Source: Jimgerdemannia flammicorona (Eukaryota). From it: a DNA stretch of 32,028 nucleotides. Positions 21,682 to 30,719 of this stretch are shown piece by piece. The notes below the pieces were generated by a model. That model had not been told where the DNA came from. It saw only the letters and a program-made list of their open reading frames with translations, and made no database searches. The stretch is taken from contig RBNJ01000366.1 in the NCBI GenBank assembly GCA_003990765.1, positions 1 to 32,028 of the forward strand, given 5' to 3'. Positions within the stretch are counted from its first letter, which is position 1. Every line of letters starts with the position of its first letter. The position numbers and the translations under genes were made by a program.

Positions 21682-21853
21682 CCGTCTCCAAGCGAATAAG
21701 AGACGCGGTAAAAAATTTGTTAGAACCAGAGTCTGCCCTTCTTCAACCGATTAAACCAGCCAAGAGGAGCCGCTGAGCTTTGAAACGTCGCCTTTGCCGA
21801 ATCGCAAATAGCTTCCACATAGTCGACTACATAAGCTTAACAAAAAGGCAAAG

Positions 21854-23847
21854 ATGAGCAGCGCGGCAGACGCCACCGACCGCAACGTCGAAATCTGGAA
21901 GGTGAAGAAGCTCATCAAGAGCTTGGAAGCGGCCAGGGGGTAAGCAACGAATCACACCCAAACCACCATCACAAAAATGTCTACCACATCCTCATTGTTC
22001 ACTCGCCGTGCACATTCGTCTCGCGCGTAAACTCGATAGCAACGGCACTTCCATGATCTCCTTGATCATTCGTATGTAACCTCTCCCATTCTCTCATCTC
22101 GCTCTTGTGTCCCCCGGAGAGTGACTGTGTCTGGCTGGATGAGACTACTAGTTGATTAACACGCCATTCCACTCCGATCATCTGTTCTATTGTAGCTCCG
22201 AAGGATCAAATTTCTCGCATCTCCAAGATGTTGGCCGATGAGTACGGCACCGCATCCAACATCAAATCCCGCGTCAACCGTCTCTCTGTCCTGGCCGCCA
22301 TCACCTCGACCCAACAGCGCCTCAAGCTCTACAACAAGGTCCCCCCCAATGGACTTGTCGTCTACTGCGGCACCATCGTGACCGAGGAAGGCAAGGAGAA
22401 GAAAGTCAACATCGACTTCGAGCCCTTCAAGCCCATCAACACCTCGCTCTATCTCTGCGACAACAAATTTCATACTGAGGCCCTCTCGGAACTCCTCGAG
22501 TCTGACGCCAAGTTTGGCTTCATCGTCATGGACGGTAACGGTGCTCTGTTCGGCACCCTCTCGGGCAACACCCGTGATGTCGTCCACAAGATGACCGTCG
22601 ATCTGCCCAAGAAGCACGGTCGTGGCGGTCAGTCCGCTCTTCGTTTCGCTCGCCTGAGAGAGGAGAAACGTCACAATTACGTTCGTAAGGTTGCTGAGCT
22701 CGCGGTCCAGGTATGTGCTCTTTTTGAGTGTGATTTTTTTTTTTTAAATCTAGCGGCCATCTTTTCTTAAGAATACTGTGAATTAATGTTATGTTCCCTT
22801 ATGTTACAGTTCTTCATTACGAGCGATCGGTATGTGATTTCCCTCCCTTATTGTCTATGTATATCTGGGTTCCTTGTGTAAAAATGAATCACTTGCCCAT
22901 TGGTTGAGGTGTCCAAGTGGTCAACCCAACTTAAAATTGACACGTGACTCATTGATCAAACGGTTTCTCTCAATAGTGTCAACTGCGCTGGCCTTGTCCT
23001 TGCCGGTTCTGCTGACTTCAAGACTGAATTGTCGCAATCCGACATGTTCGATCAACGTTTGCAGGCTAAGATCATCAAGGTCGTTGATGTGTCCTATGGT
23101 GGCGAGAACGGCTTCAACCAGGTAAGGGATATATCGGTTACAAATATGTACCATGGCATAGGAAAGAATTGCTCTAGAATGACCAAAAGTTGGCATCTTT
23201 GTCTTAACCTCGTTCGTTTCTGCTTATTTATCCAGGCCATTGAACTTTCCGCCGAGTCACTGTCCAATGTCAAATTCATCCAGGAGAAGAAGCTCATCTC
23301 CACCTATTTCGATGAGATCTCCCAGGACACGGGCAAGTACTGCTTCGGTGTCGAAGACACGCTCAAGGCCCTCGAGATGGGTGCCGTGGAGACATTGATT
23401 GTCTGGGAGAACCTGGACGTCACCCGTTTCATCCTCAAGGACTCCGTGGGCGTCGACCACATCGTGCACATGACCAAACAGCAGGAGAAGGAGCGCACCT
23501 TGTTCCTGGACAAGGACTCGGGAACCGAGATGGAGGTGGTCGAGAGCAAGCCGCTGTTGGAGTGGTTCGCGGACAAGTATAAGGACTTCGGTACGTATTT
23601 ATTATGTATTTCGGCACGAGCAGTCGATAAACACGACAATGTAAGGGACACATTCACGGACTGTTTCTAATATGTTGTTTCTTCCTACCCCACCACAGGT
23701 GCTGTCCTCGAGTTCGTGACCAACCGCTCGCAAGAAGGCTCTCAATTCGTCAAGGGCTTTGGTGGCATTGGTGGCCTGCTCAGGTACAAGGTCAACTTCG
23801 AGCAGCTCAACTACGACAGCGAAGAGGATGGCTTCTACTCCGATTGA
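21854..23847 (+). CDS. SUP45: Eukaryotic peptide chain release factor 1 (eRF1), 433 aa; exons 21854-21939, 22040-22071, 22196-22710, 22810-22829, 22977-23121, 23236-23590, 23699-23847
   Basis: Contains [51 protein letters not shown] and [11 protein letters not shown]. Six GT-AG introns give a 1302-nt in-frame CDS ending in TGA. Confidence 0.98.
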
Positions 23848-24076
23848 CAAACTCTGAACGTCAGCAATGAGGGGACGGCAAAGGGCGGGGAGGGGGCGGG
23901 GCCGGGGCGTGCGGAGTCGGGAGGCGCACGGTGTGATCAGTATATGGAGATGAGCCTCGGTCGTGGAGATGGTAAGAAGGGTGTCTACGAGAAAAATGGG
24001 AAGAGAAATGATAAGGTTGCCGTTGCCCCGGCGGCCTGATGGTGAATGTTAGCCGAGAAGTTCGTGCACACGTTAG

Positions 24077-24186
24077 GTGAGTGGTCGCCTCTTTTCATTG
24101 ATTGCTATTTCTTGGTAATGGATTTTCAGGATCGGTTAAAACGCCCTCCTTCTGACCAATATCGATCTGATTGTTCAATTCTTCAG
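24077..24186 (+). promoter_or_regulatory. Predicted intron in the eRF1 3'UTR
   Basis: Donor AG|GTGAGT at 24077, branch-like CTGAC (~24152) and CTGAT (~24167), acceptor TTCTTCAG at 24186. The 110-nt length is like the coding introns of this gene. There is an alternative acceptor TTTTCAG at 24129 and an alternative donor GTAAGA at 23972. Confidence 0.55.
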
Positions 24187-24230
24187 ACCGCATTTGCGAA
24201 TCAGACAACGTATCCAATATAAAAAGCTCC

Positions 24231-24268
<38 letters not shown>

Positions 24269-24748
24269 GTGATTGCGCACACGCGTCGCAAGACCTGCAC
24301 AATTGCACACGCGTCGTCCAATTTCATAGTTTCTTTCGAATCTCATCAGATGTAACATATCTTCTATCTTTGGTCTTTCTCAACCGTGTGGTGGTATCGT
24401 GCAAGAGCGGGTTCCGTATCGCTCCTGTCTGCATTTCCCCTACTTTTTTCGTTCGTTTGCTGTTTTGTATACGAATAGACCAAAGACATGTTTTACGTGA
24501 CGGAGCGTTGTTGGAGCCTGCTCGATTTGGTTGGAATACGAAGTGATTTTTATTGAAATTTATATATATATGCGTTCTTGGAAGGTTGCTCAAATCGCGT
24601 TTTGGTCAAGGTTCAGGAGTCCCGAAGTCACGGAGCTGGTCAAAAAGTGTGGGAAAAGAACAGAGTGGCTTGAAACGTGACCGTCGATCGTAATCTTCAA
24701 AATTCATGCCCCGTAAACACATCGTCTACTCTGGACTCGCTTTCCAAA

Positions 24749-26974
24749 ATGAGCACGTACCATGACGACGATATCCCTTCGCTTGTTCCTGTAGAGGACC
24801 CTACCATGTATGTACTGTGTCATTTATGGGTTGTGTCTCACTTTGTTCGAGCGTCCCCTTACATCCTGGCGCGTTCATCTTAAAAAGCTCGGAACTCGTG
24901 AACGGCGAGGCTGCCAAATCACCTACCTCGAACCAAGGACAGAAGATACCCATAACTATCGTAACCGGTGAGCCTCATCTGCTATGGCACCTTGTCTTCA
25001 TGATCAACGGAATAAATTGGAACGAAAAATTTTGGTGAATCCGACTCCCACTTGGCTATTTAACGATCACCATAAATGTGCGATAAACAACGCCCTAGGC
25101 TTCCTTGGCAGCGGTAAAACCACGTTGCTCAACTACATCTTAAACGAAAAGCACGAGAAACGCATCGCTGTCATTCTGAACGAGTTCGGCGAAAGTGGGT
25201 AGTTCGTTTGCTTGTACTTTCGACCATTATGTTGGTTGGTCTACGCGGTTTGAACTGACTGCGATTACCATCTCTTCGACTATGTGTGGGGGCGTGTCTG
25301 GCAGGCAGCGACATCGAGAAGGCCCTCTCTGTGAGCGATCAGGGCACGCTTTACGAGGAATGGTTGGAGCTGAAGAACGGGTGTCTTTGTTGCTCGGTCA
25401 AGTATGTAGCGGCTCTGGTTACATATTAATACATCTGTTTTCGAGGTCACATGACTTTCCGGACTCACCACATTTACCCTTCTCTGACTCGCACTCAACC
25501 AGAGATAATGGAGTCAAGGCGATTGAGAACCTGATGCTCAAGCGCGGGCGGTTCGATTACATCCTCCTTGAGACGACTGGGTTGGCGGACCCAGGACCCA
25601 TCGCCTCCATTTTCTGGATGGACGACGAGCTGGGGAGCGAGATTTATCTGGACGGGATTGTGACGCTTGTGGACGCCAAGTATGTCGAGAAGGTGAGCCT
25701 CAGGGCGAGAGCGGGATTTATGGTGATGGGATGGATGGATGTGTGGATGGTGGCTCTAATTAATCGACGTTAACTTTGCAACAGCACATTGGAGAGAAGG
25801 CCGAGAACGGATCGATCAACGACGCAGTCAAGTATGTCCACTGTTGAAGCCAGCTGAAGCGCGCATTATGACGTCACCCATCCTACACGAAACAAAGCTC
25901 CCATCTACGCTATCTACGCTCACATATATTCTGTCTGTTATTCACATATTGAATTCAGACAGATTGCCATTGCGGATCGCATTATCATCAACAAAACGGA
26001 TCTCGTGGATGAGGGTACACTAACTCAATTGGAAAGTGACCTCCGGTATGTTTCTTGATTGTCTGTCAATTGAAGGTTTGCTTGGGATGGTTCATATATC
26101 ATATTTGACGTCCTGATACATCTTCTATAACAAATATACGAATTGCTGGACAGCTTTGTTAATGCCGCAGCTCAGATTGTACGGACGCAGCGGTCCAAGT
26201 AGGCATCCCTTTTCAACTGTGGTACCTACATAACACGTTAGTCCCACTCTTAATTAGACCAATTTGTTTGCCCTTTTCGTAGAGTTTCGTTGGATTTTAT
26301 CCTCGACATCAGAGCTTACGACGCGAAGGGCCTCAACGACATCGGCAGCGCAGACTCGAACTTTATTACTGGTGGGCGCAGCAGCCATCTGGACGGGGTA
26401 AGCGGAATTGTTTATTCGCACACGCATCTGAGATGGAAGGCAATGTATCATGCGGCTTGCCTTTTCCTCCATTGCATTAATGGACACCACATTGCTCCTA
26501 TGCTACACATCCCACCTGCAGTCGGTACAAACAATCTGCATCCAGTTCCGCCAACAGGCGACCGACATATTACGACTCGAACGTTGGATCCAGACGCTGC
26601 TGTGGGAAAAGGTGATACCGCCGTTCACTGCGACCGTCGCGGATGATCATATCGAAGAACATGACAATGGTCACGCGCACGACCACGACCACGGCCCACA
26701 CGAGCCAGCGGCGTCAGGCGACACCGTGATCGTCCTTCGGCTTAAAGGTATCGTCACGCCGCCCGCAGATGACAACAACAGACAAAGGCGGCTGGTCGTG
26801 CAAGGGGTGCACGAGTTGTACGACATGCAGGAGGCCGCGGGGGAGACAGGAGAAAGAGGAACTGGCGAGGATGTGAGCAAGATTGTGCTGATCGGACAAA
26901 ATTTGCATAGATCGAGGTTGGAGACGTCGTTTTGTGAGTGGGTTGGTGTCGCGAGTGGAGATTTGGTGAGGTGA
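24749..26974 (+). CDS. ZNG1: ZNG1/CobW (COG0523, G3E family) zinc-chaperone GTPase; exons 24749-24807, 24888-24967, 25099-25194, 25305-25401, 25503-25692, 25785-25831, 25959-26045, 26154-26198, 26283-26397, 26522-26974
   Basis: Contains [16 protein letters not shown] (Walker A), [22 protein letters not shown] (GCxCC), [14 protein letters not shown] (NKxD) and CobW_C (LRLKG...VQGVHELYD...KIVLIG). Nine GT-AG introns keep the frame. Confidence 0.95.
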
Positions 26975-29480: not shown

Positions 29481-30098
29481 AACAGAAGGTAAAATAAACT
29501 CTCATCTTTTTAAAAAAGACAAGAGAAATGAGCCAGATTCCCTCATTTTCGCATTCTTCATTAGAATTCCCCCCTGTCTCGAAGAGCTTTTTAAAGCCTC
29601 ACATGACAAGAGGTGAAAGCCTGTGACCAATGCTGCATTTTACGGCGGGATCACAAGGTCGATGGCGGAAGAGGGATAATCCTGAGATCTTTGTAATGTC
29701 ATTGATAGATGAATGTGTGCGGGAAAAGAAAGAAAGGTGTTTTAGCATTGTTTGTGATCTTGTTCATTACACGTCATGGTCAAATAGAGATAGATGTGTG
29801 TGGGGGGGGGCATCATGATGTTCCGTGAAATCACACATCTCGAACATGATGTTATTATAGAGTAGGGATCGCCAGAGATTCCTTTTCATGATATTAGCCG
29901 CGGGTTTGCAGGATTCGGAAAAGGAGGGGGTGTTTTGAAATCGCGGATTTGACATTCACAAAGAGGGTGGCGAGACCATGTGGTGCTGGGCTTGCTAAGG
30001 CAGAACGCCATGCCAGCGACGATCTCTTTATGTTGTGATACGTACGTAATCAATGCTGTAATGACGGTTCCGATAGCTCCGGGCGCACCTAGGGGCGT

Positions 30099-30148
30099 GG
30101 GGTGGGGTGGGGTGGGGTGGGGTGGGGTGGGGTGGGGTGGGGTGGGGT
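30099..30148 (+). repeat. (GGGGT)10 pentamer repeat, G-quadruplex-capable
   Basis: Ten perfect units about 570 bp upstream of the cold-shock gene ATG. Confidence 0.9.
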
Positions 30149-30719
30149 GAGGGCGGAAAACGGAAAGTTTAATAAATTGCAAGGGCCGGATGGCTAAATT
30201 TGAGGTGGGCATGATGGACATACCACCTGCTAAATTTAGATCATGGGCCCAAGCCATCTGAAACGTTCGTCGCCAGATGCAAAAAGTGCGGCAGCCTATT
30301 GCCCCTAAATCGCTTAACGCTCCCAATCCTGCCCCCCCCTTTTGGCTTTAAGAGACCCATTTAATTTTTCCTCTTCTGAACTCGTCCCCTCTTTCTGTTG
30401 CGACCCGAGCAACAAACAAACCGAACCCAAAAGAGACCCTGCTCACAACCTCCTCCTCCCCCTGCTACTTGCAACCCGAACGGTACGTGACTGACAAACA
30501 CCTCCCCATTTTGCCCAGCTGCGAGCTGCGGATCCCCCCCCGACGAGGACTGGCGTAGAACCCGCTCCCAGGCCGCTCCCCTCCCTCCTCCCCCCCCCCT
30601 CAACCCGCCGGCCACTTCCCCCACCGTTCCACTTCAATTGCCATTACTGATCGTGCCATTCCCCCACCCACCTTGTACCAGCAGCAAACCTCGCTTTGTT
30701 CACACGCGCAGAATTCGCC

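Follow-up and report, generated by a model that had tools for sequence, protein, structure and literature searches.

Does the eRF1 gene of Jimgerdemannia flammicorona carry, behind its stop codon, a switch that adjusts its own expression? The question arose from a window of 32,028 nt, the whole stretch of DNA analyzed here, for which a sequence-only reading had proposed an autoregulatory circuit combining stop codon readthrough with nonsense-mediated decay (NMD). The eRF1 level governs the fidelity of stop codon reading throughout the cell, and, to our knowledge, control of the steady eRF1 level in eukaryotes was until recently known just in plants and in one ascomycete. For Neurospora crassa erf1, Kurilla et al. 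2020 (FEBS Lett) and Zhang & Sachs 2015 (Genetics) reportedly described readthrough together with NMD elicited by a 3'UTR intron, and Kurilla et al. 2020 are said to have proposed similar circuits for many fungi. The plant eRF1 circuit was shown experimentally and, in the passages of that study drawn on here, needs three elements: a stop codon open to readthrough, a downstream intron at a distance of more than 50 nt, and a following stop placed where it does not trigger NMD; CARYYA after the stop is given there as the readthrough context, with the +4 C being most important (Nyiko et al., 2017, PMC5397192). The distance of a junction past a stop follows a rule of roughly 50 nt, as summarized in part of PMC6173133, and in N. 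crassa NMD from spliced 3'UTR introns requires exon-junction complex (EJC) factors, according to an excerpt of PMC10578600.

J. flammicorona belongs to the Endogonales within the Mucoromycota, in agreement with the sequence-only reading, which had taken the DNA to be from an early-diverging fungus. The product of exon 3 is 100% identical to protein P0004, named eRF1, and the six coding introns (99–147 nt) are all skipped in RNA contigs. The CDS ends with TCC GAT TGA (23845–23847), followed by CAA ACT CTG. Thus, the TGA-CAA that had been read from the letters indeed lies at 23845–23850, and TGA is followed by C, as in the 3'UTR module of Dikarya-like fungal eRF1 genes described below. Relative to the full readthrough context, the +4 C and CAR are present, but YYA is not (TGA-CAA-ACT). 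The features of the locus are compiled in the table.

Table. Features of the eRF1 locus and its 3' region (window positions; a slash marks an exon-intron boundary)
Feature	Position	Strand	Remarks
eRF1 gene	21854..23847	+	7 exons, 433 aa; stop-free translation
eRF1 exons	21854-21939, 22040-22071, 22196-22710, 22810-22829, 22977-23121, 23236-23590, 23699-23847	+	
Main stop TGA, then CAAACT	23845..23853	+	+4 C and CAA present, YYA unmatched
In-frame readthrough extension (putative), 63 codons, G-rich, peptide not conserved	23848..24036	+	frame reading and variants
G-tract region with four-tetrad G-quadruplex motif (predicted)	23871..23907, core 23887-23906	+	motif search
Next stop TGA-TGG-TGA, two in-frame stops	24037..24045	+	37 and 31 nt 5' of the exon junction
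3'UTR intron, 110 nt	24077..24186	+	TAG/GTGAGT...TTCTTCAG/ACC; skipped in X1 and X2 RNA contigs
Distal 3'UTR exon	24187..24268	+	AATATAAA (24216-24223), T13 (24231-24243), A25 (24244-24268)
Further transcribed stretch	24278..24500	.	about 1/3 depth; X2 record 7 (287.7 vs 941.9) and X1 contigs

The circuit depends on an intron behind the stop codon, and this intron is real. Exactly the 110 nt that had been proposed as a consensus intron (GTGAGT...TTCAG) are removed in RNA-derived contigs from two runs. In X1 as in X2, a single contig jumps over 110 nt bounded by GT..AG (24074>24185, cut +2), the joint having a depth of 381.6 and a side of 21 in X1 and a depth of 941.9 and a side of 36 in X2. 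The longest view is provided by record 6 of X2 (1730 nt), which covers 21728–24220 and has lost all seven introns, the six coding introns as well as the 3'UTR intron. The interior of the intron (24077–24186) was covered by no contig, and the depth of the corresponding bin stems from its 11 exon bases only. Since these 110 nt are spliced out in RNA-derived contigs, the exon junction must be real. The last exon base is 24076, which puts the junction 229 nt past the main stop and 37 nt past the next one, as had been calculated; the 3'UTR thus contains the second element of the plant circuit, a spliced intron at a distance of more than 50 nt from the stop. The contig transcripts run beyond the intron. 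Of the junctions anticipated earlier, 24076/24187 was found, whereas no joint at the alternative donor at 23972 or at an acceptor ending at 24129 was seen in four runs, which does not imply its absence, as assembled contigs lose rare forms and are blind to minor isoforms, RNA ends and strand. The AG of this alternative acceptor exists, but it ends at 24129, and 24130, the position originally assigned to it, would be the first exon base. Runs X3 and X4, both root metatranscriptomes, contain sections of the CDS with some of its coding joints, but not the 3'UTR.

The frame behind the main stop is open for 63 codons (QTLNVSNEG...VAVAPAA, 23848–24036) until the TGA at 24037–24039, as had been reported. 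Beyond this, we found that the second stop is doubled, TGG and a further in-frame TGA (24043–24045) following directly. With two TGAs that precede the junction by 37 and 31 nt, the next in-frame stop is at a position at which NMD should not be induced, the third element of the plant circuit. The other two frames contain 4 and 5 stops within the same 229 nt, the first of them at +7 and +20 nt, so that frame 0 is longer than both other frames and exceeds 40 codons, which is also typical of the Dikarya-like module. In 5000 dinucleotide-preserving shuffles, at least 63 open codons were obtained with P = 0.054, and a next stop located at most 55 nt before the junction, or past it, with P = 0.078. 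With a P value of about 0.05, the open frame by itself is weak evidence and only suggestive. A second variant of the gene differs in the extension by five substitutions, four of which are non-synonymous, versus none of ten in the CDS; none of them creates a stop, and the sole indel is 3 nt long. To judge from this pattern, in which four of five substitutions alter the residue and the frame stays open, the extension evolves like a spacer, and the peptide itself is probably not functional. An X1 variant contig contains an extra TGA inserted behind 24036. The extension peptide is of low complexity.

The eRF1 mRNA thus has an exon junction 229 nt past a UGA-C stop, and the extension of its frame meets a double stop 37 nt before this junction. 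The two distances fall on opposite sides of the rule of roughly 50 nt, which is why we count them in favor of a readthrough-NMD 3'UTR. By analogy, the following circuit can be envisaged. When eRF1 is abundant, ribosomes would terminate at the first stop, the downstream exon-junction complex would stay in place, and the mRNA would fall prey to NMD. Scarcity of eRF1 would let more ribosomes pass UGA-C, translate the 63 codons and end near the junction; the complex would be displaced, the mRNA spared, and more eRF1 produced. It is fairly likely that this Endogonales eRF1 gene ends in an intronic readthrough-NMD 3'UTR like those through which seed plants and N. crassa autoregulate eRF1. The predictions that the switch proposed in the sequence-only reading makes for in silico data were all borne out, but its agreement with CARYYA is partial and a GC hairpin is absent. 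Both observations weaken this reading, the former because CARYYA is matched only in CAA, and the latter because the hairpin occurs in 47 of 50 other fungal loci.

These loci come from a survey of 80 metagenome eRF1 loci, in which two large fungal clades together comprise 50 loci; the loci are mutually related, and the following counts are therefore not independent. TGA-C was found in 45 of the 50 loci, and an extension of at least 40 codons in 46 of the 47 loci for which the extension is known. For the Ascomycota-anchored clade the values are 25/25 for TGA, 21/25 for TGA-C and 25/25 for extensions of at least 40 codons; for the second fungal clade they are 24/25 for TGA-C and 21/22 for known extensions of this length. 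Twenty other loci, including four (L028, L034, L035, L052) with unreliable stop calls, have TGA-C in two cases and a median extension of 17 codons. Prior to counting, the duplicates L058 and L048 (of L055 and L046) were dropped, and stops were re-read in 15 Ascomycota-type loci whose terminal exon is tiny or whose C-terminal part contains an intron. The stop's own frame is the longest open frame of the three in 21/23 and 16/17 genomic loci. Therefore, the prediction that orthologs retain UGA-C and an open frame is supported by the metagenome survey of fungal eRF1 loci. Among the 50 loci, one 3'UTR intron could be confirmed by a transcript/genome pair: comparison of the spliced contig L060 with its genomic relative L063 revealed a 55-nt intron 183 nt after TGA-CAATTT, with a frame of 98 codons that is open across the junction. 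The first in-frame stop lies just inside a donor-like motif in 8/23 and 3/17 loci in frame 0, and in the other frames the values are similar or higher. Another fungal locus that is not Dikarya-like, L007, has TGA-C, a next stop at +69 and a candidate donor (AAG/GTAAGA) at +101, 29 nt after the second stop, from which an intron is predicted.

A direct alignment with the window was limited by distance. The best whole-protein identity to the window eRF1 among the metagenome loci is 84% (L015, which ends before its stop), blastn of the 3' tails of the metagenome loci against the window tail gave no match, and none of the loci is near enough for a 3'UTR alignment. In a FastTree phylogeny the window eRF1 is placed outside both large clades; the tree is midpoint-rooted and the placement weak.

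In addition to TGA-C and the long frame, 47 of the 50 Dikarya-like loci have in common a GC hairpin located about 12 nt (10–15 nt) past the stop, which in the Ascomycota-anchored loci has the form CCTCGC-loop-GCGAGG and lies 12 nt after TGA. Joint alignment folding of 45 stop-proximal stretches yielded no consensus structure; the stems do not line up between the two clades, and their loops differ in length. Therefore, the hairpin claim rests on the stem search with shuffles. Rfam searches at the hairpins of six loci gave no match. The conserved hairpin probably boosts readthrough in these other fungi. The window eRF1 has no such GC-rich hairpin 10–15 nt past the stop: the stem search detected no stem of at least 5 bp starting within +1 to +30, and the RNA fold has a z-score of 0.07. 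In the window, Rfam gave sub-threshold matches alone, on the T/A run. Instead, a G-quadruplex motif is located near +40, one of 7 such motifs on both strands of the window, and the G4-aware minimum free energy is −57.3 kcal/mol versus −32.1 ± 7.6 in 200 shuffles. We venture, as a long shot, that the switch predates the split of Mucoromycota and Dikarya and was rebuilt in the Endogonales, where an RNA G-quadruplex of four tetrads, located 40 nt downstream, would have taken the place of the hairpin. Ribosomes in readthrough would stall there, past the stop by about the length of one ribosome, and thereby hold the next ribosome on the UGA. If true, ribosome queuing would be coupled to termination efficiency and mRNA fate.

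Part of the evidence is also compatible with NMD that damps eRF1 expression without any rescue. The intron is real and more than 50 nt away from the stop, which would make the mRNA a constitutive NMD target, and readthrough might be too rare to matter: the hairpin that probably boosts it elsewhere in fungi is missing, the match to CARYYA is incomplete, and the open frame, viewed alone, may be due to chance or a relic. Even then the eRF1 level may modulate the efficiency of NMD. However, it is difficult to see why the next stop should be doubled and placed 37 nt before the junction if ribosomes never reach it, TGA-C is retained both in the window and in L007, and the frame is open in nearly all fungal relatives, so that we regard damping without rescue as rather unlikely. 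It is less probable still, and in our opinion quite doubtful, that the junction does not destabilize the mRNA at all, with an intron that is neutral or enhances expression, and with no regulatory meaning in either the stop context or the open frame. We found no demonstration of EJC-dependent NMD in Mucoromycota in the literature consulted, which leaves room for a neutral intron, and also no paper on eRF1 readthrough in this group; yet eRF1 genes of fungal clades and of plants repeatedly show this combination of three parts, and its chance co-occurrence in one gene would be a coincidence.

A leaky stop context and an open frame would also be expected if the purpose of readthrough were not mRNA protection but a functional eRF1 with 63 extra C-terminal residues. 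The low complexity of the extension argues against this, as do the lack of a blastn match to the window tail among the 3' tails of the loci and the excess of non-synonymous substitutions over the CDS. Furthermore, the extended form of plant eRF1-1 might not act in termination, as far as the consulted passages of the plant study go (PMC5397192). A functional extended isoform is thus highly improbable. The window eRF1 is probably another member of the known readthrough-NMD circuit, in a hairpin-less form.

As a probable member of this circuit, the window eRF1 resembles plant eRF1-1, as far as the latter is described in the passages used, in the CAA, with +4 C, that follows its putatively leaky stop, in the spliced 3'UTR intron more than 50 nt past the stop, in a next in-frame stop at which NMD should not be induced, and in that the longer protein is probably not what readthrough is for. 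The contexts differ in detail: plant eRF1-1 has TAG-CAATCA with A at −1 and −2, whereas the window has TGA-CAAACT with T at −1. Moreover, plant eRF1-1 belongs to another lineage and was tested functionally, whereas the window eRF1 is known from sequence and RNA contigs. With N. crassa erf1 it has in common that the gene is fungal and that a spliced 3'UTR intron follows a stop prone to readthrough and elicits NMD, readthrough and NMD being predicted for the window. The Dikarya-like module agrees with the window in TGA-C, in a frame 0 that extends far beyond the stop, and in the 3'UTR intron. In contrast to the Ascomycota-anchored loci, in which the frame is open across the junction in one verified case, the next stop of the window lies just before the junction. 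Bacterial RF2 with its +1 frameshift and a recoded release factor of giant viruses sense factor abundance at a stop in their own mRNA, as the window eRF1 would, and convergent origins of release-factor autoregulation are argued for in the part of the plant study used here (PMC5397192). In these two cases rare recoding yields the functional factor, whereas in the window normal termination yields eRF1 and recoding would merely protect the mRNA.

The mechanism is not of a new kind; what is new are the RNA-derived contigs in which the 3'UTR intron at 24077–24186 is spliced. An RNA-verified architecture in the Endogonales, which are early-diverging and plant-symbiotic, extends its range beyond Dikarya. 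Combined with the metagenome survey, it suggests that fungi either have had the design of leaky stop, open frame and 3'UTR intron for very long or can readily invent it anew. As a natural variant, the form that lacks the hairpin and has a stop right before the junction could reveal which elements are truly required by the switch.

Further downstream, the RNA contigs break in the distal 3'UTR exon, where the repeat at 24221–24277 is skipped. The transcribed stretch that follows, at 24278–24500, may belong to a longer 3'UTR isoform.

The 3' region of the eRF1 gene was read again from the sequence, and its coordinates agree with those of the sequence-only reading, including the distances from the last exon base (24076) to the eRF1 stop codon (stop 1; 229 nt) and to the stop codon that follows in frame (stop 2; 37 nt). 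The positions of stops and intron stand, an alternative acceptor had to be corrected (its AG ends at 24129), and the TGG and further TGA behind stop 2 were absent from that reading. The six coding introns are 99-147 nt long, with the donors GTAAG, GTATG or GTACG. A public Jimgerdemannia flammicorona protein annotated as an eRF1 'variant' (P0004, 471 aa) shows 100% identity to the exon 3 product over the whole length of that product and equals the present gene model with intron 5 kept in frame, with an identical ...GFYSD end. Because intron 5 is spliced out in RNA contigs of the sequencing runs X1 and X2 (the root metatranscriptomes X3 and X4 have no joint there), P0004 looks like an intron-retention model.

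Features of the eRF1 region in the window and of related metagenome loci (L-numbers)
Feature	Coordinates	Strand	Remark
eRF1 gene	21854-23847	+	gene model; seven exons, 433 aa
Intron 5	23122-23235	+	in frame; +38 residues in P0004
eRF1 CDS end, ...TCC GAT TGA, then CAA ACT CTG	TGA 23845-23847	+	stop 1
Open in-frame extension	23848-24036	+	63 codons, up to TGA 24037-24039 (stop 2)
G-tract	23871-23907	+	unusual, early in extension; canonical G-quadruplex motif
Second in-frame TGA	24043-24045	+	reached after TGG behind stop 2
3'UTR intron	24077-24186	+	starts TAG/GTGAGT, ends TTCTTCAG
Hairpin examples	L055:2729-2745; L009:2670-2683		survey over L001-L066, 10-35 nt past stop
Split-Asp-codon loci			L037, L039, L045-L051, L054-L059, L062, L071, L076, L079, L080

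Contigs from two runs, which stem from different studies but bear the same organism code, were compared with the window over 21700-24800. X1 and X2 contain 55-56% of the sampled words, the share expected of a spliced transcript, and the joints of all six coding introns are present in both. Record 6 of X2 (1730 nt, spanning 21728-24220) lacks all seven introns, and the contigs are therefore RNA-derived, despite the run label 'RNA?'. Both runs also contain a 110-nt skip with GT..AG ends at 24074>24185 (24077-24186 with the cut moved by +2), represented by one contig each, with a depth of 941.9 and a short side of 36 nt in X2, and 381.6 and 21 nt in X1. No X1 or X2 contig covers the intron interior; the depths of 99.6 and 40.4 in the bin 24092-24195 are the contribution of its 11 exon bases. 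Thus, the 3'UTR intron is real and spliced as predicted from the sequence. The joint was found at the proposed junction 24076/24187, and none was found in the contigs at the other proposed positions, 23971 and 24130, that is, at donor 23972 or acceptor 24129; because contigs drop rare forms, minor isoforms using these sites are possible.

Transcripts reach beyond 24186, which removes polyadenylation upstream of the intron, an outcome that the sequence-only reading had named as speaking against it. The contigs break off at a run in which T13 adjoins A25 (24231-24268), directly after AATATAAA (24216-24223) in the eRF1 3'UTR. This genome-encoded A run could be a poly(A)-tail mimic or an oligo-dT priming site, and the contigs show neither strand nor RNA ends. 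Rfam near-matches, all far under threshold, were located only on the T13/A25 run. Another contig spans 24278-24500 at about one third of the depth and may represent a longer 3'UTR isoform. The next gene downstream, covered by X2 record 8 and hence transcribed, starts at about 24750 (24742 onward, + strand); its GSGKTT P-loop stretch suggests a putative CobW/COG0523-type GTPase.

A last-exon peptide scan of metagenome contigs yielded 80 eRF1 loci; stops were corrected in 15 loci with a tiny terminal exon (...YYD G/intron/AT TGA), and two uncorrected duplicate rows were left out of the counts. In clade A, the stop is TGA in 25/25 rows and TGA-C in 21/25, and the extension comprises at least 40 codons in 25/25. 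The values for clade B are 24/25, 24/25 and 21 of the 22 known. Among the 20 other loci, which are largely non-fungal-looking and include some unreliable stops, they are 6/20, 2/20 and 4/17 (median 17 codons). Since the rows of each clade are mutually related, these counts represent non-independent events. As an internal control, the stop's frame is the longest open one of the three in 21/23 (A) and 16/17 (B) genomic loci. Protein matches anchor clade A in Ascomycota (L047, 97.7% identity with a protein from Tuber borchii; L050, 97.4%, Neophaeococcomyces; L071, 90.3%, Xylariaceae); clade B, which lacks an anchor, is probably, at a guess, Basidiomycota. Judged by these sequences, TGA-C with a long open frame is a broad pattern among fungal relatives, and the conservation in orthologs on which the sequence-only reading depended extends family-wide through both clades. 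In many Ascomycota-type loci, the last eRF1 intron splits the final Asp codon, so that the stop and its context lie on a tiny terminal exon right after the splice junction.

One relative's 3'UTR intron is directly confirmed: L060, a spliced, transcript-like contig, lacks 55 nt (CAG/GTGTGT...CCAG/) that are present in the related genomic locus L063, 183 nt past TGA-CAATTT. In L060, the open frame crosses the junction and extends over 98 codons. In this sole verified Dikarya-like case, the extension runs past the junction, whereas that of the window stops just before it. A rough FastTree, midpoint-rooted and built from query-anchored eRF1 sequences, places the window and L007 outside the A+B group. 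L007 has TGA-CCC, its next stop at +69 and a candidate 113-nt intron (AAG/GTAAGA...GTAG) starting at +101; the predicted junction would lie 101 nt past stop 1 and 29 nt past stop 2, a geometry like that of the window.

The plant eRF1-1 element (Nyiko et al. 2017; PMC5397192) consists of a stop prone to readthrough (stop-CARYYA, in which +4 C matters most), an intron in the 3'UTR at a distance of more than 50 nt downstream of it, and a next stop positioned so as not to induce NMD. Part of the mRNA is saved from NMD by readthrough, the rescue is lost when the next stop is shifted to an NMD-inducing position, and eRF1 overexpression decreases readthrough and increases NMD (PMC5397192). EJCs located at least 50 nt past a stop escape the ribosome (PMC6173133). 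The window has both structural elements outright, intron distance and next-stop position, and part of the context, namely +4 C and CAA but not YYA. For this reason we prefer the model of the sequence-only reading, in which high eRF1 leads to termination at stop 1 and NMD, and low eRF1 to readthrough to stop 2 and sparing of the mRNA, as probably the best explanation of this 3' end. Beyond the observed anatomy, splicing and family-wide leaky stop with open frame, ribosomes would have to read through stop 1, an EJC would be deposited at the 3'UTR junction and then removed, the eRF1 mRNA would be NMD-sensitive, and the eRF1 level would feed back on its own mRNA.

NMD could also damp the eRF1 mRNA without any useful readthrough, an alternative to which we assign a clearly smaller chance; the incomplete context speaks for it, and the doubled stop so close to the junction against it. 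That the 3'UTR intron is neutral seems unlikely. By itself, the open frame of the window is only weakly above chance: 63 open codons occur in 5.4% of 5000 dinucleotide-preserving shuffles of 23848-24076, and in 7.8% of them the next stop lies at most 55 nt before the junction or past it; the window's remaining two frames contain 4 and 5 stops there. The architecture gains weight beyond chance because the relatives repeat the pattern. A functional extended eRF1 isoform is very improbable. The extension peptide is of low complexity, and blastn of the window's 3' tail against the tails of the metagenome loci gave no match. Alongside the exact 3'UTR, X1 contains a second version, 90-95% alike, with five substitutions in 23951-24076 (four residue-changing, none creating a stop), a 3-nt insertion behind 24036 that gives another TGA, and 6 further substitutions in 24352-24466; the 10 CDS variants over the four runs are all synonymous. 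In this small sample, the extension fits a spacer, of which the openness matters and not the sequence. The X1 material may thus contain another haplotype, nucleus type or close strain.

Structurally, the eRF1 3' end of the window is a well-supported further case of the plant/Neurospora circuit, and under the readthrough-NMD model it would work as do eRF1-1 of plants and erf1 of N. crassa. However, the plant gene has a TAG stop, whereas the window has TGA and a different post-stop hexamer. Kurilla et al. reportedly proposed similar circuits for many fungi already in 2020. In the literature searched, we found no paper joining eRF1, readthrough and Mucoromycota, and that Neurospora paper with its supplements may cover early-diverging fungi. 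The sequence-only reading was right to suspect an early-diverging fungus, as Endogonales, to which J. flammicorona belongs, are described as an early-diverging lineage inside Mucoromycota (PMC5729711).

Two leads deserve a separate look, the hairpin survey and the G-quadruplex. A GC-rich stem starts 10-15 nt past the stop in 47 of the 50 clade A and B loci (6.0 expected from mononucleotide shuffles), as CCTCGC-loop-GCGAGG at +12 in clade A and GGCTC(C)-loop-(G)GAGCC at +11 in clade B. Between the clades, both bases of each of the five outer pairs are replaced, with complementarity kept. A structure that stimulates readthrough would be expected at this site, and the hairpin is probably such an element. 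Rfam gave no match in the six loci tried, and among the paper titles listed in a literature search none concerned a hairpin of fungal eRF1 genes; Kurilla et al. (2020) may describe it. Unlike these Dikarya-like loci, the window has no stem of at least 5 bp starting within +1 to +30 (fold z-score 0.07).

Counting both strands, the 32-kb window contains seven G-quadruplex motifs, among them the one in the extension. Folding that takes G4 into account gives -57.3 kcal/mol with a four-tetrad quadruplex at 23887-23906, compared with -32.1 +/- 7.6 in G-rich shuffles of the same composition. At +40, it is too distant downstream to touch a ribosome sitting on the stop; speculatively, by our own arithmetic, a ribosome stalled at the G-tract would leave space for about one more, whose A site would lie near the stop. 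In one run, the RNA contigs are interrupted at the G-tract. Elsewhere in the window (30092-30153, + strand), a GGGGT-like repeat run, perhaps a microsatellite or telomere-like, contains three adjoining G-quadruplex motifs.
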